From the NCBI GenBank assembly GCA_965208905.1, contig OZ242365.1, positions 1,760,001 through 1,824,000 of the forward strand: a stretch of DNA of 64,000 nt, read 5' to 3'. This DNA is from Nitrosopumilaceae archaeon. Lineage in GTDB: Archaea > Thermoproteota > Nitrososphaeria > Nitrososphaerales > Nitrosopumilaceae. The notes below the pieces were generated by a model. It was given only the letters and a program-made list of their open reading frames with translations, had not been told where the DNA came from and made no database searches. Below, piece by piece: positions 171-38,844 of this stretch (positions are counted from its first letter, which is position 1; every line of letters starts with the position of its first letter). Both the position numbers and the translations under genes were made by a program.

Positions 171-1636
171 GGGAATTATATACAAAAGTACACAACCCAG
201 ATTCTGAGAGTTAATGCCTGAACCACGGATCTCGTCCATACAACTCCCCTTAAATACTAGTATGCCGTATTATATATTATGATACGTATAGTTAAGGTAC
301 CGCTACGGAGGGATGTGTTGTTTGCAGGGTGGGCGCACCGCACGAATCATGCGTCAAGATATGTGTACAACCGCGCCGTATCAGAGTATTTGTTTGGTGG
401 CGAATATATGGAGAGGGTGGTAGTGGACATCCTGCAGCCCTTCAAACTACCGGGCAAACTTAGTTTTACATCAGGTATGCTGGACGATGACTACCATACA
501 TATGATTTTGGGCCATCAAAGAATGTATTAAAGTACGGCATGTTCAAGCAGCTTACGGAGTGGCGCGCTGAACATGCATGGGTATCTGACTTGCCTATGG
601 TGTTTGGTAGGGGCGCCATACAGGATGCCTCTATCGCATGTAGAAGAGTTATACATGACAACTCCGGCCACGCGCCATACCGCCGCAAAGACGGCCGCAT
701 CATATTGAGTTCCGTTACACCGCCTATACAGAAAGGCGAGCACACCATACATATCCCCGGATATGGTATTGTAGAGACCGCCAAGCCCATCAATGTATTA
801 TGGGACATGCGCTCATTCAAGATAGTTGATGTCACCAAACGGGTGGACAAGCATACCAAACCATCAGACCACATGTTTGAGCTGCATATTGCCGTGCGTG
901 TACCGGTCGAGCCGCACCGTAATACGGGTGTAATACGTGGTGTTGATGTGGGCGGCAAGCACCTCGCCGTCACGGTAGATACGGACGGCAACGTCACAAT
1001 ACATGATACAAGACACAGACGCATACTGCGGGAGATTGATGCTCTCAAGAGTTTGCGCGACCGCAAGACACGGCATGGCCGGAAGTGGCATATATTGAAT
1101 GACCAAATAAAGCGGCTATACAGGAAGGCCAACAACATAGCCGCGAACACCATAAATCAGACGATTGCGCAGATAACTAATGGTATGGACGCAGTCGTGG
1201 TCGAGTCGCTCTCTATACAGGATATGACCACACATGGCGGGAATTACAAACGCGCCATGAACCGTTCAATGCGGGAGAACCATGTTGGGGAGTTCCTGCG
1301 CAAGCTTGCGCAGTGGTGCGAGATGCATAACATACCGCTGTTGGGGGCATCGGCCAAATATACGAGCCAGACGTGCCATGTGTGTGGTCACGTAGACTCA
1401 GAGTCGCGTATATCACGCGACAAATTCATTTGCACTAACTGTACCAGGGTATTCCACGCGGATGTCAATGCCGCCTGGAACATTCTGCATAGGGCGGCGG
1501 GGAACGTCGTCCTAAGACGGCCGGGGCACAAGGAGGGCTACAAGCCAACACCTTCTATGCTCCACTCCATACAACGAGGTCGTCAGAAAAGGCTTGAGTG
1601 TGCAGCCGAGGCTGTGTACTTTTGTATATAATTCCC
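171..1636 (+). mobile_element. Non-autonomous TIR element with IS1595-like ends, carrying only tnpB
   Basis: Perfect 24-bp TIR GGGAATTATATACAAAAGTACACA (171-194 / 1613-1636); 8-bp TSD TTAATGCA (163-170 / 1637-1644). Confidence 0.92.
279..1631 (+). CDS. tnpB: TnpB-family RNA-guided endonuclease, apparently intact
   Basis: RuvC-I GVDVG, RuvC-II VVESL, Zn finger TSQTCHVC..CTNC, RuvC-III HADVNAAWNI; the stop codon lies inside the right TIR. Confidence 0.92.
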   Translation: MIRIVKVPLRRDVLFAGWAHRTNHASRYVYNRAVSEYLFGGEYMERVVVDILQPFKLPGKLSFTSGMLDDDYHTYDFGPSKNVLKYGMFKQLTEWRAEHAWVSDLPMVFGRGAIQDASIACRRVIHDNSGHAPYRRKDGRIILSSVTPPIQKGEHTIHIPGYGIVETAKPINVLWDMRSFKIVDVTKRVDKHTKPSDHMFELHIAVRVPVEPHRNTGVIRGVDVGGKHLAVTVDTDGNVTIHDTRHRRILREIDALKSLRDRKTRHGRKWHILNDQIKRLYRKANNIAANTINQTIAQITNGMDAVVVESLSIQDMTTHGGNYKRAMNRSMRENHVGEFLRKLAQWCEMHNIPLLGASAKYTSQTCHVCGHVDSESRISRDKFICTNCTRVFHADVNAAWNILHRAAGNVVLRRPGHKEGYKPTPSMLHSIQRGRQKRLECAAEAVYFCI

Positions 1637-7778: not shown

Positions 7779-7880
7779 CCCTGCGCAAGTTAACGATAAA
7801 CCTCGTTAATTCTCCACCCGTTTTTGCTGGAAGAACCCGATGTGTAGGGAGTATCATCATACTGCCGAAGTCAATTGCAC

Positions 7881-9431
7881 TCAAGAGATACCTATCGACA
7901 CGCCATTCTCCTGCATCCTACGGAGTGTATGCGACACGGCAAGGTCGGCTAGCATACGCTTGTTGGCGCACAACACCAACTCGATAATCTGAACTCCTGA
8001 TTCCGTGGGATTCCCATCGGATGATGCACGATCGAACACCCCATAGGGATCCTCCACCAAACCACCGGCGGCCTCGCATGTGCGCAACATCAACTGCTCC
8101 CACGTATCTTGGTCAACAGACTCGGCCAACCCCCAAACGCCAAAGCCGTACAGTGCCTCCGGCTCCGGTGATGAGTCTAATACAGATTCCCAGAATTGCA
8201 CGGCGCGTTTCACAAATTCCCCCATACCGTCCTGCATAATGAGCCATCCACATTCGTGGCCGGCAATTGATACGGCATCGGGCCCCATACTAATCAAAGC
8301 CCTTACCGAGCCGTCTATCTCGTAGCCGCGCGAACCATGCAACATATGGTTGATAAAATCGTTCATGAGGTCGTTTCCTTCCGCCCGGCTTCCCGTTTCA
8401 GATTCCAATTTCCTCACTGTCCGCATCTCTTCACCCAGCGCCTCCAGTACAAGCGCATGGTACTTCTCCATAGTCGGCCTGTCCAAGGAGGTGATATGTG
8501 AGTAGACGCGCATCAAAACCACGTTCATGCCGTCTGGAGAATCTTCCCCAAAGAGTAGTGATTCGTTTTCTTTGTACCAATCCGGTAGTGCCCAGCGTAA
8601 AACATTCAACGCGCAACCAAGCACAATTCGGTGTTCCCTTCCTTCCTGCCCGCCAAGCCTTGCAACGGCGGTTAGCGTTTCTAGCACCTCCGGTGGCGTC
8701 CCGTTACGCAACCTTGTCACCACATATGTGAGACAGAAAAACGCCTGAAGGTGCAGCCTGTTGTCAATCTCGTCGTGACTCAACTTGTAGCACTCATAAT
8801 CTTCATATTGACCAGGCATAATAGCCTGCAATATGCGGCCTATGTCTTTCAGCACGCCTGCGCCAAACTCAACCTTCTCATTCCTCAATAGATTCTCAAG
8901 CGTATGCATAATATCTGAAACCGCTTCACGCCAACCAGATTCATCGTCTGCTCTCTCAGTACGGGACGCTACATACTGTTTCACGACATGAAGTATTATT
9001 GGCGCCAGGCTCTCCGTCTTCACACCGTTGGCACTCCACAACCCTCTAAAGTACGCGCTCGCGTATGCCGGGTAGTATAACGCCCCTATTACGTGGTCGG
9101 GGTCGGCAGTCCACTTTTCGGTGTTGTTTTGTACGGCCTCCCTCAACTCATCAGATGTTCCAGAGAATGGCGTGTGTGCATGGTTCGGCTTTTGTGAATG
9201 GCGCGACTTCACAGATTTTACATATGTGGGTTTACACCCAAGGATGCTACACAGTTCTTTGGCTGCGTCCAGGCGGCCTTTGCCGCCATAATATATCGAA
9301 CATTGTTCTACGCCCAATAACACAACGCATCTTTCGTCCACCCCGCAATACCACCAATCATCTCCCGGCTCCATCATACTAGGTCGGGTGCCAATACGGG
9401 TGATCGTCCAAATAATACTCCCAAAATGCAT
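7881..9431 (-). CDS. Hypothetical helical protein, possibly a fragment of a larger protein
   Basis: 516-aa open frame with no recognised motif. Confidence 0.6.
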   Translation of the reverse strand: MHFGSIIWTITRIGTRPSMMEPGDDWWYCGVDERCVVLLGVEQCSIYYGGKGRLDAAKELCSILGCKPTYVKSVKSRHSQKPNHAHTPFSGTSDELREAVQNNTEKWTADPDHVIGALYYPAYASAYFRGLWSANGVKTESLAPIILHVVKQYVASRTERADDESGWREAVSDIMHTLENLLRNEKVEFGAGVLKDIGRILQAIMPGQYEDYECYKLSHDEIDNRLHLQAFFCLTYVVTRLRNGTPPEVLETLTAVARLGGQEGREHRIVLGCALNVLRWALPDWYKENESLLFGEDSPDGMNVVLMRVYSHITSLDRPTMEKYHALVLEALGEEMRTVRKLESETGSRAEGNDLMNDFINHMLHGSRGYEIDGSVRALISMGPDAVSIAGHECGWLIMQDGMGEFVKRAVQFWESVLDSSPEPEALYGFGVWGLAESVDQDTWEQLMLRTCEAAGGLVEDPYGVFDRASSDGNPTESGVQIIELVLCANKRMLADLAVSHTLRRMQENGVSIGIS

Positions 9432-10046: not shown

Positions 10047-10101
10047 GGGAATTATATACTTAAAATCAATCTTTATATAACCAGTGATTCTAAGGTGTAT
10101 A

Positions 10102-11043
10102 ATGCAACAAGCACCAGGTAAAAGCCACCGTGAAGGAATAACACTAGTGAAACTGTTCAAGATGTTTCCCGATGATGAAACGGCTGAAAAATGGTTTGAG
10201 TCAAACATATGGGGTGATGAGCCATGCTGTCCGTATTGTGGCAATACAAATGTAACAAAGACTGTAAACCAATCACAGCCGTATTACTGTGCAGGTCGTG
10301 GGAATTGCCACAAGCGGTTCTCTGTCAAAGTCGGCACCATAATGGAGCATTCCCATATCACATACCAACAGTGGGCAATCGCAACATACCAGTTCATGAC
10401 TAATGTGAAAGGCATTAGTTCAATGAAGTTACATAGGGATTTAGGCATTACCCAAAAGTCCGCATGGTTCATGGTTCAACGGTTAAGAGAATCATGGAAG
10501 ACATTAGCAAGTGTAAACAAGATGGAAGGTCCAGTCGAGATTGACGAGGCTTATTTCGGTGGCAAGGAAGGTAACAAACACGCAGACAAGAAAAGACCAC
10601 ATAGTCAAGGTGGAGCCGGCAAGGTTGCCGTTGTGGGAATAAAAGACCGCAAGACAGGTACAGTAAGAGCTCAACCCGTACCAGAGACTACCACAGCCCG
10701 TCTTGGTGAATTTATTAAACAAAACACCGAGACGGGCGCTACCCATTATACAGATGAGCATAAAGCATACAAGAGTTTACCAAACCATCATGTAGTTAAT
10801 CATTCCGTTAGTCAATATGTCAACGGCATGGCACACACAAATGGCATAGAATCCTTTTGGGCTTTACTAAAGCGTGGTTACTATGGAACATTTCATCATA
10901 TTTCGGCAAAACACCTACACAGGTATGTCAATGAGTTTGCAGGTCGCTTGAATATACGCAACATGGATACAATAGACATGATGGTAAGCATGGTTCAAGG
11001 CATGGTTGGCAAACGACTTACGTATGACGTACTCATTTCATAG
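10102..11043 (+). CDS. IS1595-family DDE transposase
   Basis: Zn ribbon CPYC, QKSAWFM HTH, VEIDEAYFGG, YTDE, HTNGIESFW, YVNEF. Confidence 0.93.
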   Translation: MQQAPGKSHREGITLVKLFKMFPDDETAEKWFESNIWGDEPCCPYCGNTNVTKTVNQSQPYYCAGRGNCHKRFSVKVGTIMEHSHITYQQWAIATYQFMTNVKGISSMKLHRDLGITQKSAWFMVQRLRESWKTLASVNKMEGPVEIDEAYFGGKEGNKHADKKRPHSQGGAGKVAVVGIKDRKTGTVRAQPVPETTTARLGEFIKQNTETGATHYTDEHKAYKSLPNHHVVNHSVSQYVNGMAHTNGIESFWALLKRGYYGTFHHISAKHLHRYVNEFAGRLNIRNMDTIDMMVSMVQGMVGKRLTYDVLIS

Positions 11044-12491
11044 TAGCAGGTATCGCACGTGGCTTCAATATAGAGAGATCTGGTTTGATACCTTTTGATT
11101 TTAGTGTGGCGATTAAGTATGCCAAATCCCTATTTCCTTTTGTACTGTTACATGCTCCACATAATAACATCAGATTATCAATATGGTCAGTGCCACCTTT
11201 GCTTTGCGGTATGATGTGGTCTATTGTAAAATTCCTAAACGGAAAGTGTACATTACATAGACAACGGCCTTCTTGCCTACCGTATAGTTCATGTTTGCGT
11301 GTGCGGTAATTTGGTATTGCGCCTTGGTCAGTACGTTTAGGTGCCTTATCGCGGTTGGTGATCTCATAATGCCTTAACCCCATAGTGCGTTGAGTTCGCA
11401 TGGCGACAAGTTCAACGGCCTTGTGCGATAGATCAATACCGACCCATTGACGGTTTAGTTTTTCGGCAGCCACACATGCCGTTGCGCACCCACAAAACGG
11501 ATCAAACACAATATCACCCTCATTGCTTGAGGCTTTTATAATGCGTTCTAGTAATGCTAATGGTTTTTGGGTTGGATAGCCTAATGCTTCTCCACTACTT
11601 GAAATTCTCGGTATATCATTCCAAAAATCATCTATAGGAACACCAACGTAATCTTCTGCATACTTACGGCGCTCTAACTTATTATTCTCATGTATTACCA
11701 CATTTCCCTTATCGTATTCTTCTTCCAATCGTTTTTTGCTCAATCGCCATCCACTAGGATGTGGGTTAGTAAATCCTCGCCATGTATAACATAGGTTAGG
11801 ACGATCACCCATTGATTTGGAACAAAATATCGGTATACCAGTCTTATATCGTCTCCCATCAACATCCACTTTAGGAAATTGTTCTCTCATTTGCTCTGAC
11901 GTAAGTTGCTGATATGGTCGCAATGTGGTTGTAGCAGTCTTAACATAGAATAACAGAATGTCAGTATTGCGGCCCCACTGTTTTGGTTTATGTTGAGAAC
12001 CTTTTCCTCTTTTATCATTGCGTTGCCAATGTACTTCATTACGAAAATTGTCTTTTCCAAATATTGCATCCATGACCAGTTTGAGGTAGTGACTGGCAGT
12101 TGGATCGCAATGTAAGTATATAGACCCCCCCCCCCCCGCGCAGGATCCGCCTCATCTCGATAAGGCGAATTCCCATCATGATAAGATATGACATCATGGA
12201 TTTGCCATGCGTATTACGAGTCGCATCAATAACAGCATGCAATGCGGGTTCACTGTCAGCCAAGTAGCCATGCCATGCAACATCCACATCACTCAATGAC
12301 CATGTATCCTTGAAAGCGGCCCCGGCCGCCTTAGAACCTATTGGTGCTTCATATGAGCGATTGGAATTGAATGGCGGATCTAAATATATCAAATCGACTG
12401 ATTCAGAGTTCATGCCCCGCATTATATCCAAGTTATCACCTGTCCACATGGTACGGTTTGACCAGTTAGGATCGTTCATACTATACATCAT
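11033..12491 (-). pseudogene. Beta-class N6/N4 DNA methyltransferase fused to a C-terminal HNH nuclease, frameshifted at a G13 tract
   Basis: DLIYLDPPF in the 5' frame; GSIYLHCD, YPTQKP, DPFCGC and IDHIIPQSKGG..NL..LC..CN in the 3' frame. The frames switch at C13 12125-12137. Confidence 0.88.
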
Positions 12492-12837
12492 ACATTATCG
12501 GTATATTTGACTACTGCCCAACAGTTTAAACCATGTGATCAAACTTTCTTAACCATACGTCACGTTTATAAAATAAGGATATGAAAGCAATTTCAAGGGC
12601 TCAAATCAACGCTCTTTTCGTCATTGGGGTCACTCCCTTTGGCTTTTGTAGTTTTATCATTGCCTGTCTTGTTGCTTTCATAACATACCTAGGAAATATG
12701 GATTATATAAAGATTGATTTTAAGTATATAATTCCCCAATTTTATGTTACAAATTTCCCAACCGTATAGTAGGTCACTATTTCTTCCCAATTCCCCCCAG
12801 ACGCAACGCTTTTCCAGATAGCTAGGATAACTCACTT

Positions 12838-34656: not shown

Positions 34657-35571
34657 CTAAAGCGACAAGCCAGAGATGGCAGACTTTACATTGGTCACAC
34701 CGGCATCAAAGATGAACCGTTCATCCTCATTCAACTCTAATTCTACAATACTTTCGATACCGTTACGACCAATCACTGCAGGAACACCGATGGCCACATC
34801 AGTGTGGCCGTACTCTCCATCAAGACGTGTAGACACAGGTAGCACATTACGACGATCACTCATTATGGACTCTACTATTACGGATATGGCATTTCCAGGA
34901 GCATGTACTGTGGCACCTTTCAGAGCAATTACCCGTGCAGCTACACCACGTGTATCTGTCACCAGATCATTTGCCTCTTCTGATTTTATCAGGCTCATCA
35001 AAGGTATGCCTGAGACAGAAGCAAATCGTACGAGTGGAAGCATCTTCTCTCCATGTTCACCAATCACCAATGCGTGTATGGCGTGTCTGGAATAATTTGT
35101 CGTTTCATGTATGAATTGCTGAAATCTGGACACATCCAACATATTTCCCATACCCAACACCCTACTCCGCTCAAAACCAGTGACGTGTTGTATCACATAC
35201 GTCATTGGGTCTAGCGGATTTGTTACAGGTACTACTATGCAGTCAGGTGCAAATTTTTTGATATTTGTGGCTACATCGGTGACAATGCTTGCGTTCTTTT
35301 TTAGCAGATCCATTCTTGTCATGCCTGGTTTTCTTCCCGAACCAGCAACCACTACTATGATATCTGAGCCAGCCATGTCCTCGTAGCTGTTGGAACCACG
35401 CACCTTAACATCAATACCTTGTTCTGAGAGTGCATGGTTCAGGTCCATTGCCTCACCCTGAGGCAAACCTTCAACTACATCAAGTAGCAGTATGTCTCTA
35501 TCCACCCTCTTTAGTGCCGAGAAAAGAGCGGCACTGCCTCCAACCTTGCCGGATCCAACTATGGTAAGCAT
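34657..35571 (-). CDS. mdh: Malate dehydrogenase (LDH-like)
   Basis: [28 protein letters not shown]. Confidence 0.93.
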
Positions 35572-35878
35572 GTCTGAATGTAACTGATTGGATGTAAATA
35601 AATCTAAGTGTACATGGCTGTACTGACTCAACTGTATACTTGAAGTGATATTGTTTTATTATGGGATATCTGAAGTTTGAATGCCTAAATGACCAACCAC
35701 TATATTTTTGATGTATAATATTGGGAACTATATGCGAAGTTAGCGCATAATGCGGCATGGCATTAGTAGTCTTTAAACGAGCCGATTCCCATATAATACA
35801 ATATGTCCCTCAAGTGACTCCCACATCAACATGACTCGTATGCAAGCGGGCTATGTGGGTAGGATACGCAACACTTAG

Positions 35879-37486
35879 GGTTCCTCCCGCAAAGTCGGGT
35901 GATTACACCCCCGCCATGCGGGATAGTCTGTCAGCCCAGTTGCTCCAGCAACCCTGTATGAGTGGTGTGGGACACAGTATTACATCCACACCACGACGGA
36001 CTTCGCCCAGACTGGCCGAAACCTGACGACCATATCGTGATACGGCGCTTGTTCGCCGTATGTTCTCCACTGTATTGACATCGCGATCTACGCCAACTAT
36101 ATGGCAGCGGGTGCAGTCTTTTCTATGATAAGTTCCAGTTAGTATGGTTCTGCATGCAGCACACAACTTGGATGTGTTGTGTGGACGCATATGTAATGCC
36201 TCCACTCCCAAAAACCGGGACTTTTCATAAATTAAATCCGATGCCTTTCGCATCATGGCAGAATGTAATCTGCGACGCATGCTGCGTCCAAACTTTCCAC
36301 CCTTCTGCCAATTGTACGATATGTGGGTTAAATCCTCCAACATAACCAAACACCCGGATTGTGCGGCCCACTGTGCAATGCATAGTGCTATCACGTTCAG
36401 CACATGTTCGTGGTGGCGCATGGCTTTGGCTACCCTGCGCTTTTTAGCACTCTTTTTTGACTTTGTGTGGTTATGTGGTATGCTCAATACGCATCTGCTT
36501 CTTTATCTCGGCGACCCTCTTGTGTTTGCCCTCCCTCTTGAGTTTCCTGTATCTGCGTTTGAGTTTGCTGTGTAACTTGTGACCACCATGTGCGACTTGT
36601 TGCTTTTCTCTGCGTTCCTCCTCTTTCTTGTGTGTAATGCGCCTTCCGGTACGTGCCGCATATGTGATATTATCATGTGTACGTGTATACGTATTGTTTG
36701 CATCCTCAGTCTTTGCCTCCTCAATGGCCTGTATCGTATCGGATAGATCAAACTGTACCACCGTATTTTTATCACCTACGGTGATGTTCTTTTCATTAAT
36801 ATCCACGCCAATTACATCCCTTGGTGTGCCGCCCACACAACCCACATCCGTAAGCAACTCGATAATCTCTGACTTGCCGTGTGGGTGGGGTCTTTCAACC
36901 TCGGGCACTTTATTATGATATGTTATGGTGTATGTGGTTGGCGTAATCCATAACTTGCCCAACTCATTTTGTCTTATTTTACGTACCACATCTGAAGAGA
37001 TAGGAATTGCTATCATATGTGGGTGTTTTGATGAGCCAACATTTGCAATAGCCATATATCCACCCGCTATCGGATTCAGCCTCCAATTTTGGTTTTTTAA
37101 CTTTACAACCGGATTACAGAATACAGGTTCAGATACCTTCATGCCCTGTGCAGTCTTCGTATTGTACGTTTTATGGGCGGCAACCCCGTCCCGTATGGCG
37201 GTCTGCGTTATGGACGAATATACTTTGGGGTCAGGACCGCGCATTATACGATATATCAATGCGTTAACACCATAGGTATTCCTCCCTGTATTATTCGCTA
37301 TAATGTACGCCACTTCTGCTACCTTCCTGACATGTTCAAACACATGCCGCATACCCAAATTTTTTGTGTATGGACGTGTTACTGCCCTGCCATTTTTTAC
37401 AAGAGCCATCATACAGTACGGTTTAATGACGTATTTAACGCTATCCAATGACACATCAACCATCACCTGACTTTGTGGGAGGAATC
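35879..37486 (-). mobile_element. Non-autonomous TIR element carrying only a TnpB-like gene
   Basis: 25-bp TIR GGTTCCTCCCGCAAAGTCGGGTGAT (35879-35903 / 37462-37486, 3 mismatches); 8-bp TSD ACACTTAG (35871-35878 / 37487-37494). Confidence 0.88.
35903..37466 (-). pseudogene. tnpB: Long TnpB/Cas12f-like nuclease with one frameshift near 36480
   Basis: VIGVDIN (5' frame); VMLEDL, TSKLCAAC..CTRC, DRDVN..NI (3' frame). Confidence 0.82.
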
Positions 37487-37626
37487 ACACTTAGTAATTT
37501 GTATATAACTGGGCGGCAGAGAGCGCCACAATAGTACCCTATACTATTTGAGATCATTCTGACATAAAATAATGACTGTAGTAGAACCAACAGAGTTTAT
37601 ATGAATTTGATGTATCATAACACTCC

Positions 37627-38844
37627 ATGGTACTGGTAATAGACCCCCGGCAGGCAGGTATATCTGGAGACATGATGTTGTCTGCTCTTGTGGATATGCG
37701 GGGAGACGGTGATGCGCTATGCAAAAATATACAGAAATGCGCAAAGTACCTAGAAGGCTCAACAATAAACAGTATCCATTTTCAAAAGACAGCCCGCAAC
37801 GGTATGGCGTGTACGCAGCTAAAACTGAACATAACTGACCCTCATTTTAGACCTGCGTCCGAGATAATATCTGCTATTGAAAAGTCCGTAGAGTATCTGA
37901 AACTCTCAAAACCAGCAAAAATGTTTGCAGAGCGTACTGTGCATGCTCTGGTATCTGCAGAATCTCAAATACATGATACTACATTAGACTCGACAGAACT
38001 ACACGAGCTCTCCTCTGTTGACACACTGGTGGACATTGTTGGAGTGGCCCTGGCGCTTGATGGAATAAATGCATTTCAGAACAATGTGATTATTATGCCG
38101 GTAAATGTGGGTGGCGGTACTGTAAAATTTGCGCATGGAACAATGTATAATCCAGCTCCCTCCATACTAAATATATTATCTAATGCACAGATTCCGATAT
38201 TTGGCGGACCAGAAGGCACAGAGACAACAACTCCTACTGGTGCTGCTATTGTGGCAGGACTTGCGGGAACTACGATGCCGTTTTATCCCCATATTGTACC
38301 AAAGTATATCGGATATGGTGCTGGCTCCAAAGATGTCACTAACTTTGCCAACGTACTTTTATTGGTACAGGGTGATGACTACACCGAAACATCATATGAT
38401 ACAATATCTGTTATAGAGACCAATGTGGATGATATATCCGGTGAAGTTATAGGTGATCTAATATCCACACTCCTGAATCATGGAGCCTTGGATGCCACCA
38501 TTCATACCCGTATAGGCAAGAAAGGCAGACCGGTTCATGTAATTTCAGTTATGTGCGCCCATATCTTAGTAAGCAATATTACAGATGTACTTGTACGTTA
38601 CACAGGTACATTGGGAGTGCGCCTTACTACTACTCATAGATATACAGTACCAAGACAAGATGCGACCATTACAGTTACAATCGATCAAGCAGAATATACA
38701 TTTCGTTACAAATCCCACAAACACAGACAGACATCAGACTTTAAGATAGAGTTTGATGATATTGCAGATGCTGCAAAGAAGACAGGCATGAACGCCCGTA
38801 CAGTAGAGCGGTTAGTCAGGAGGCATATTGAAGAGAATAGATGA
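37627..38844 (+). CDS. larC: Nickel insertase LarC
   Basis: AGISGDM, HELSSVD, FAHG..PAP, TTPTGAA, GYGAG, ETNVDD, KKGRP. Confidence 0.92.
   Translation: MVLVIDPRQAGISGDMMLSALVDMRGDGDALCKNIQKCAKYLEGSTINSIHFQKTARNGMACTQLKLNITDPHFRPASEIISAIEKSVEYLKLSKPAKMFAERTVHALVSAESQIHDTTLDSTELHELSSVDTLVDIVGVALALDGINAFQNNVIIMPVNVGGGTVKFAHGTMYNPAPSILNILSNAQIPIFGGPEGTETTTPTGAAIVAGLAGTTMPFYPHIVPKYIGYGAGSKDVTNFANVLLLVQGDDYTETSYDTISVIETNVDDISGEVIGDLISTLLNHGALDATIHTRIGKKGRPVHVISVMCAHILVSNITDVLVRYTGTLGVRLTTTHRYTVPRQDATITVTIDQAEYTFRYKSHKHRQTSDFKIEFDDIADAAKKTGMNARTVERLVRRHIEENR

Follow-up and report, generated by a model that had tools for sequence, protein, structure and literature searches.

Positions 35879 to 37486 of the archaeal DNA analyzed here contain a degenerate, non-autonomous insertion element that has tnpB as its sole gene. 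This element is a tnpB-carrying, transposase-less derivative of an archaeal insertion sequence (IS) of the IS6 family found in the same genus. The DNA, referred to as the window, is the whole stretch of 64,000 nucleotides spanning positions 1,760,001 to 1,824,000 of contig OZ242365.1 from a Nitrosopumilaceae archaeon; the host genome, here referred to as G000, is a single contig (C1) of 2.21 Mb and is 99.57% complete. The family of TnpB-only elements that includes the window copy was named F1. Directly outside the target site duplication (TSD) on the tnpB-upstream side of F1 elements, we identified a short WTA(Y) motif, which is probably the transposon-adjacent motif (TAM) of the F1 TnpB. Taken together, an IS6-type tnpB element with a motif that is a TAM imposed by its own TnpB is the best overall explanation of the data, and we assign it a probability of roughly 0.7.

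The window copy is 1608 bp long and lies between two exact copies of an 8-bp TSD, ACACTTAG, which are located at positions 35871 to 35878 beside the tnpB-downstream end (RE) and at positions 37487 to 37494 beside the tnpB-upstream end (LE). The terminal inverted repeat (TIR) at the RE, GGTTCCTCCCGCAAAGTCGGGTGAT (35879 to 35903), is the same as the family consensus, and the TIR at the LE (37462 to 37486) has three mismatches to the consensus. By eye, the TIRs are 25 nt long and match at 22 of 25 positions, and a repeat finder reported arms of 23 nt (35881 to 35903 and 37462 to 37484) that are 91% complementary. The 16-nt TIR core occurs twice in the window versus an expected 0.06 times, and a count of two was reached in 0 of 100 shuffles. 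Two minus-strand tnpB frames are the only long reading frames in the element. The upstream frame (331 amino acids, 36471 to 37466) covers the WED/REC part, the RuvC-I Asp and a basic insertion, as judged from the open reading frame (ORF) and the fold of an intact copy, and the downstream frame (194 amino acids, 35903 to 36487; 27.2 bits to PF07282) covers the RuvC-II Glu, a CxxC...CxxC zinc finger and the RuvC-III Asp, as judged from the motifs of P0001, an intact F1 TnpB copy of 523 amino acids that was used for domain, alignment and structure work. The frameshift between them, which divides the RuvC triad, is an 8-bp deletion near 36497/36498 (copy-specific site, 36490 to 36500, minus strand) that, in the assembly sequence, none of the 11 other copies compared shares, the truncated copy c11 being excluded. 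The earlier note had stated that the TIRs directly abut the start and stop codons of the gene. The contact is indeed close, but the GTG start codon lies within the LE TIR and the stop codon (35903 to 35905) overlaps the last base of the RE TIR. With the 8-bp deletion and three changes in one TIR, the window copy is dead.

F1 elements have been mobile. G000 contains 13 full-length copies with 87 to 92% identity to the window copy, plus fragments, and the homology between copies ends at the TIR tips. Both ends are available for 12 copies; eight of these have perfect, mutually different 8-bp TSDs, one has TSDs with a single mismatch, and three have none. Most copies are open, with 518 to 529 codons from stop to stop (the exceptions are the window copy, c12 and the truncated c11), and the open frame is kept in at least nine sister copies. 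To look at the locus in related strains, contigs from four public runs (X1, X4, X9 and X12) were compared to positions 35300 to 38100 of the window; the locus is present in public runs labelled sponge metagenome, and in the RNA runs X16 to X20, the matching fraction of sequence words was only 0.07 to 0.12. Contigs within the F1 repeat are short, collapsed mixtures of many copies. A 24,488-nt contig from X12 joins position 35870 to position 37487 and skips 1616 bp with eight shared letters, and thus represents an empty site in which ACACTTAG occurs only once. In this empty allele, neither the TAA/TTA motif nor the 28 bases on the other side have changed, and no difference is listed at positions 37487 to 37557. 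Contigs in X1, X4 and X9 extend from the flank into the element. The insertion lies between a malate/lactate dehydrogenase gene (mdh) and larC, a gene for LarC-type nickel insertion, and the empty site persists in a closely related strain. The earlier note had made its reading dependent on relatives without the gene showing a single copy of the 8-mer at the junction, which is what the X12 contig shows, and its description of a TnpB-only element bounded by TIRs and TSDs was borne out by the exact TSD and the 13 full-length copies. G000 also contains deletion derivatives on contig C1 (626859 to 627354, 496 bp; 999540 to 1000124, 585 bp; 539996 to 540350, 355 bp). In these, the two TIRs are present along with the TSD and the upstream motif, and what is left in between is mostly the tnpB-downstream part, presumed to be the guide RNA region. 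These derivatives may be guide-RNA-only hitchhikers.

No transposase gene was found in the ORF list of the F1 element, and matches to DDE_Tnp_IS240 (PF13610, IS6 family; cut-off, 27 bits) were obtained with partner elements only. Allowing up to 2 mismatches, the F1 TIR core occurs 75 times in G000, where it bounds F1 itself, a second TnpB-only family named F2, the deletion derivatives of 355 to 585 bp, and one 1536-bp element without long frames. F2 elements are approximately 1.51 kb long, encode a TnpB of 472 to 485 amino acids, and are represented by G000:C1:28035-29550 plus 6 to 7 copies; their TIRs, GGTTCCTCCCGCAAGGACGGGTGC and GGTTCCTACTGCAAGCACGGGGG, are related to that of F1 and have the first 14 nt in common with it, and among seven pairs of F2 TSDs, three are perfect 8-bp repeats and three have one mismatch. 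A search by TIR for an intact autonomous partner in G000 returned none, with all TIR pairs enclosing tnpB, deletion derivatives or a pseudogene copy. The best tblastn match to the partner transposase in G000 was the 1536-bp element (926302 to 927837), whose frame is interrupted by five in-frame stops and shifted once. G000 thus has a single cognate transposase copy, which is a pseudogene, and for this reason, the F1 family is probably immobile in this genome at present.

Autonomous partners were found in other genomes of the genus. The F1 TIR pattern is present in 9 of 10 of these genomes, and the reversed control gave 0 to 1 matches per strand. In same-genus genomes, F1-type TIRs bound elements of 1.44 to 1.48 kb that encode a transposase with a zinc finger and a DDE domain. 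One such element in genome G113 is 1482 bp long, has F1-type TIRs and the TSD AGCAAAAG, and encodes a protein of 393 amino acids that combines a DDE domain with a SWIM-like zinc finger. Genome G125 contains at least seven intact transposase copies of 395 to 396 amino acids, and all eight autonomous elements examined in this genome have F1-type TIRs and perfect 8-bp TSDs. The G125 transposase matches PF13610 with 31.8 bits, which is above the cut-off, and the G113 transposase matches it with 20.1 bits, which is below. Because the same ends and 8-bp TSDs bound IS6-type transposases in same-genus genomes, we assign F1 to the IS6 family as a derivative. The earlier note had suspected a link to IS6 from a loose resemblance of the ends and had proposed a search of the TIR for further copies and autonomous partners; this search yielded the 13 copies in G000 and the autonomous elements in G113 and G125, and the suspicion proved correct.

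Members of the IS6 family have 8-bp repeats and short TIRs with GG tips and "cTGTt" and "caaa" motifs (PMC7986276; statements on cited papers, here and below, refer to the portions of these papers that were available). Similar to IS6/IS26 elements, F1 has an 8-bp TSD, the GG tip and the "caaa" within GCAAAG, as well as a partner with a DDE_Tnp_IS240-type transposase, and MITE-like derivatives (miniature inverted-repeat elements) are also described for the IS6/IS26 family (PMC7986276). Unlike these elements, F1 has a TIR of 25 bp with CTCCC in place of cTGTt, and its partner is 1.45 kb long and carries an N-terminal zinc finger extension. F1 further differs in lacking a transposase and carrying tnpB, with passenger genes being reported for a single IS6 member (PMC7986276). 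The TIRs of relatives in the same TnpB family are GGTTCTaTTGCAAAG, and TnpB relatives with 33 to 45% identity in other species of the genus (G125, G043 and G100) sit in ends of the type GGTTCTxTTGCAAAGTCGG, which are nearer to the classical IS6 end. At one G100 locus (L074; G100:C54:4500-7000), a transposase frame of the IS66 family (PF03050, 58.3 bits) was observed just inside a GGTTCC...GATCTAAAT-type end, and this frame may be a nested insertion or part of a chimeric element.

Two other groups of elements were considered as direct partners and rejected. The ends of IS1595 transposase elements (TIR GGGAATTATATAC or GCTCATCT...) differ from those of F1, and among 13 other IS6-like loci in G000, the sole definable TIR, GGAACTGGTGCATC..., differs from the F1 TIR as well. 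F1 elements end in GGTTCCTCCCGCAA, unlike the GGGAATTATATAC ends that bound IS1595 transposase elements and the TnpB-only families A and F in G000, and by its TIR, F1 is not an IS1595 derivative; in this respect, the earlier note was right in calling the two TIRs unrelated. A composite structure is present at G000:C1:924780-927837, in which an F2 element, an 8-bp spacer and a decayed IS6-like element have the common TSD TTAAACTC; this suggests that the two outer ends of the composite transposed together, the shared TSD showing only the joint action of the outer ends.

Elements in the IS1341 group of the IS200/IS605 family have tnpB as their sole gene, and F1 could in principle be an ordinary member of this group that was moved by a Y1 TnpA, with the supposed TIRs being subterminal hairpins. 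A small internal palindrome, CCCG-N6-CGGG, is indeed present in each TIR, and the WTAY motif is reminiscent of TTAC, the target of IS608 (PMC13565253). We nevertheless regard this explanation as extremely improbable. F1 has 25-bp inverted ends, real 8-bp TSDs and an empty site, and in relatives, a DDE transposase gene is found between the same ends. Furthermore, a search for the Y1 transposase (PF01797) gave 0 matches in G000, with a positive control in 6 of 14 genomes, and a search for the serine recombinase (PF00239) also gave 0 matches, with a positive control in 12 of 14 genomes. G000 contains 75 TNB-domain matches, 74 of which are above the cut-off, and since neither a Y1 transposase nor a serine recombinase is found in this 99.57% complete contig, all of its tnpB genes are without classical TnpA partners.

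The second part of our proposal concerns the motif next to the insertion sites. Flanks were aligned in the tnpB orientation, and positions -10/-9 denote the two bases directly outside the 8-bp TSD, counted from the element end. At F1 LE ends, TA is present at these positions in 15 of 16 cases, and in the 16th, it lies one base further out, compared to 2 of 16 F1 RE ends, 1 of 16 ends of the autonomous IS6-type elements of G125, and a genome-wide TA frequency of 0.070. Fisher tests on the TA counts, for which the base lists were compiled by hand from the flank alignment, gave p = 5e-7 for F1 LE versus RE ends and p = 6e-8 for F1 LE versus autonomous ends. The LE triplets are TTA (nine), ATA (six) and CTA (one), and the first TSD base is C or T in all 16 cases. 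In the window copy, the motif is TTA on the minus strand (TAA on the plus strand) at positions 37495 to 37497. A similar motif was seen in relatives, with TTA in all four G083 copies, ATA in one G043 and one G100 copy, and CTA in one G018 copy. Other TnpB families of G000 have other preferences. At F2 LE ends, TTG was found in 6 of 9 cases and TTA and TTT once each. Family A, another TnpB-only family represented by window positions 171 to 1636 (G000:C1:1760171-1761636) and approximately 15 further copies, has a G at position -9 in 12 of 13 LE ends and no pattern at the other end; its elements are approximately 1.47 kb long, encode a 471-amino-acid TnpB and have an IS1595-type TIR, GGGAATTATATACAAAAGTACACA, with AT-rich 8-bp TSDs. 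Since TnpB families with common ends have different motifs, and since the motif is oriented despite the symmetric ends and is missing from autonomous elements, we attribute it to TnpB rather than to the transposase, and these features of the flanks suggest that it is the TAM of the F1 TnpB.

The motif could also reflect an intrinsic, asymmetric target preference of a now-lost F1 transposase and be unrelated to TnpB. The fact that the cognate transposase of G000 is a pseudogene, and that the autonomous copies used as the control belong to another species, leaves some room for this idea. However, the F1 TIRs are near-identical, and a DDE transpososome should not distinguish the two ends, yet the motif is found at 15 of 16 LE and 2 of 16 RE ends. 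F2 shares the first 14 TIR nucleotides with F1, and one F2 element appears to have been cotransposed with the IS6-like copy, yet F2 insertions are associated with TTG. As the motif is also present at only 1 of 16 autonomous ends, such a preference appears to be a very unlikely cause. Alternatively, the motif may be a promoter requirement. The start codon is located in the TIR with only 20 nt of the element before it, so that tnpB would have to rely on a promoter outside the element, and expression and persistence would be limited to insertions with a TATA-like sequence some 30 nt upstream. The motif is situated 29 to 30 nt upstream of the start codon, and archaeal TATA boxes sit near this position. 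What makes a promoter requirement unlikely is that several flanks are not AT-rich past the three bases (gggcgcATA, aagccTTA and ggatcATA), that the spacing is base-exact in 15 of 16 ends, and that the TTG (6 of 9) and the single G (12 of 13) of the sister families are not TATA-like.

The nuclease itself appears to be intact in most copies. P0001 matched PF07282 (Cas12f1-like TNB; cut-off, 26.3 bits) as its only Pfam domain, with 28.3 bits, and gave a weak match to the Cas12f2 model; sequence matches to Cas12 chains in the PDB were weak (best E value, 0.015). In an alignment of 51 sequences, the residues D222, E380 and D465 of the RuvC D-E-D triad (P0001 numbering) and the zinc finger residues C438, C441, C454 and C457 are nearly invariant. 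A structure model from the single sequence was unusable (predicted local distance difference test [pLDDT] score, 39.7) and was replaced by an alignment-based AlphaFold model of the intact copy, which had a pLDDT score of 84.4 and a predicted template modeling (pTM) score of 0.75. In a Foldseek search, this model matched Cas12f (8j12_A; E value, 2.1e-14), Fanzor2 (9b0l_P; E value, 1.1e-10) and TnpB (8h1j_A; E value, 6.7e-10) over approximately 500 columns, and the model has the overall WED-REC-RuvC fold of TnpB/Cas12f-like nucleases. The earlier note had described a TnpB/Cas12f-like gene of about 520 codons with a long basic insertion and one frameshift. All of this held up: intact sisters have 518 to 529 codons and the PF07282 and Foldseek matches given above, a K/R-rich insertion is located at about residues 270 to 350 of P0001, and the frameshift is the 8-bp deletion described for the window copy. 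Among 10 intact copies, codon positions 1 and 2 vary less than position 3 in 17 of 17 ORF windows, indicating that the TnpB protein has been under purifying selection. Judged by sequence and predicted fold, intact F1 copies encode an RNA-guided nuclease of the TnpB/Cas12f-like type that is divergent but catalytically complete. Among 1.84 billion representative proteins, a scan found 129 matches with an E value of ≤0.001 and 17 with an E value of ≤1e-30; a search of a metagenome collection with a smaller alignment gave only two weak loci (E value, 1e-6), which were not used.

In TnpB elements, the TAM is located 5' of the upstream end, and the guide comes from sequence that flanks the downstream end on its 3' side (PMC13565253). 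By analogy, the last 150 to 250 nt of F1 probably encode an omegaRNA that ends at the RE TIR, with readthrough into the flanking DNA. In the window copy, the predicted omegaRNA scaffold overlaps the tnpB 3' end at positions 35879 to 36130 of the minus strand, the upstream limit being approximate, and, going by the TnpB/omegaRNA architecture (PMC13565253), the putative guide-encoding flank extends for approximately 16 to 20 nt past the RE (35859 to 35878, minus strand), with its first 8 nt being the TSD copy. Diversity at third codon positions drops to 0.054 in the 90 nt at the 3' end of the ORF, versus 0.12 to 0.25 across most of the ORF, and the last 252 nt fold with a z-score of -2.6, with 3 of 200 shuffles folding as well.

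We consider it probable that an IS6-type DDE transposase moves F1 in trans and that an omegaRNA from the tnpB 3' end reads past the RE, with the TSD copy and the adjoining flank serving as the guide. The empty site, made up of TAM, TSD and flank, would then be the exact sequence matched by the guide, and TnpB would cut empty alleles, resulting in homing or in the killing of cells that lose the element. Insertions that by chance are correctly oriented and 3' of a TAM would be retained and spread, and others would be lost; such selection after insertion is the simplest way in which the motif could have arisen. IS6-family elements are thought to move replicatively via cointegrates without excision (PMC7986276), and because of this, we propose that the role of TnpB would be one in drive or addiction and not in the repair of an excised donor site. 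A more direct role is conceivable, in which TnpB steers insertion by binding the TAM without a guide match and recruiting or orienting an IS6-type transpososome, which would make the process a primitive relative of nuclease-directed transposition. The motif is orientation-specific, TnpB-family-specific and absent from autonomous elements, and its fixed distance, which equals the TSD length, would fit a physical coupling. However, a contact between TnpB and the transposase is without support, no such TnpB mechanism was found in the portions of the literature checked, and post-insertion selection accounts for the same data with known activities, so that we think steering is unlikely.

Several observations weigh against the proposal of a TAM-imposing, IS6-type tnpB element. 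Among the 12 copies for which both ends are available, three (c1, c7 and c10) lack a matching TSD, and no reciprocal flanks that would pair them as recombination partners were found by eye. F1 copies differ by 8 to 13%, yet the flanks of the empty allele differ by only ~2%, which makes the age and source of the insertion ambiguous. One relative (L045 in G125) has no TA at the motif position, the control without the motif comes from the autonomous elements of another species, G125, with visibly GC-richer flanks, and insertion sites in one genome are not fully independent samples. The TAM is a prediction from insertion flanks. With regard to the guide RNA, the 3' region gave no Rfam match at E values up to 1, and RNAalifold on 14 tails showed one-sided (mostly G-U) changes and zero compensatory pairs. 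Finally, if IS6 elements do not excise, the published rationale of "restorative homing" is not directly applicable, and drive or addiction has to be assumed.

The general phenomenon of TnpB in DDE transposons has already been published, and it is the IS6-type partner, together with the strict, oriented and family-specific motif, that raises F1 above the ordinary. Previous work by Altae-Tran et al. (2023, PNAS; PMC10691335) described tnpB genes in inverted-repeat DDE transposons, as well as solo TnpBs with the same ends, in branches DDE-1 to DDE-6. Similar to these DDE-TnpBs, the F1 tnpB is located within TIRs, has its 3' end close to the transposon end, and is found in solo copies that share their ends with a transposase-bearing relative (PMC10691335). 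Unlike the IS6 chassis of F1, the only DDE family named in the main text of that paper is IS630 (DDE-6), and a 2026 review lists ISL2, IS630 and IS1031 as DDE families (PMC13565253). The term "IS1595" occurs 0 times in the main text of PMC10691335, and the words starting with "IS6" shown there are IS605, IS607, IS608 and IS630; its supplements may list IS6 or IS1595 cases. Among the papers listed by our literature search, none was, judged by title and abstract, on TnpB with IS6 or IS1595 elements, and no description of a TAM outside a non-specific TSD was found in the portions of the literature searched, including the main text of PMC10691335. The portions seen of a paper on Haloquadratum describe only classical IS605-type tnpB elements without TIRs (PMC3119063).

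F1 resembles the IS1341 group of the IS200/IS605 family in having tnpB as its sole gene, a presumed 3' guide RNA that reads into the flank, and a short motif 5' of the upstream end (PMC13565253). However, IS200/IS605 elements have neither TIRs nor TSDs, and their TAM is the target of TnpA and abuts the end (PMC13565253), whereas in F1, the 8-bp TSD lies between the motif and the element end, and the F1-type transposase does not have the same preference. Fanzor proteins in TIR- and TSD-bearing DNA transposons are similar to some extent, as the nuclease gene is a passenger of TSD-making DDE transposons; there, a specific TSD (e.g., TA or TTAA) is itself part of the TAM (PMC13565253). In contrast to the eukaryotic hosts of Fanzor, the host of F1 is an archaeon, and the F1 TSD is non-specific, with the motif just outside it.

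There is continuing debate about the role of TnpB for its transposon. The TAM of IS200/IS605 and IS607 elements is also the transposase target, and the effects of the two on element location are inseparable. In F1, the TAM and target choice appear to be decoupled (1 of 16 autonomous ends versus 15 of 16 F1 LE ends), and these elements therefore represent a natural test of the role of TnpB for the transposon. If the motif is a TAM, F1 elements provide a direct handle on TnpB-driven retention or drive, and they do so in a transposon type that is believed not to excise, such that "restorative homing" would not be the whole story. The F1 family also represents compact, divergent and rare nucleases of ~520 amino acids (17 representatives below an E value of 1e-30), with short predicted TAMs, namely, WTA for F1 and TTG for F2.

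The F1 TnpB and the family A TnpB show no significant similarity by BLASTP (E value, 3.8), implicating two TnpB lineages on two DDE chassis. The earlier note had proposed an independent capture of tnpB by a second DDE family; a second chassis next to the IS1595-type one does exist, and we infer, more than observe, that the captures were independent and in which direction they took place. As a wider and tentative view, to which we give slightly less than even odds, TnpB in this archaeal lineage may have left its Y1 or serine partners for replicative IS6 and IS1595 DDE chassis, with the TAM being decoupled from transposase target choice, nearly all surviving insertions being 3' of a motif specific to their family, and TnpB deciding which insertions persist, by drive or addiction, or even steering insertion.

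Additional mobile elements were noticed in the window and in G000. Family I, with a 478-amino-acid TnpB (G000:C1:63116-64601 plus three copies), has a third type of inverted end, AGAGTTTATGCGTAAT, and family E (436 amino acids, approximately 11 copies) has no obvious TIR. At window positions 7814 to 7837, a solo, diverged TIR-like sequence, GGTTCTTCCAGCAAAAACGGGTGG, adjoins an ORF of 516 amino acids (7881 to 9431). An IS1595-family transposon with 37-nt TIRs is located at window positions 10047 to 12736; it encodes a 319-amino-acid transposase and carries a DNA methyltransferase-HNH gene pair as cargo. A self-comparison of G000 gave approximately 250 repeat intervals of at least 500 bp, including IS630-like, rve-type and IS6-like families with 10 to 22 copies each, and the IS load of this genome is very heavy for 2.2 Mb.

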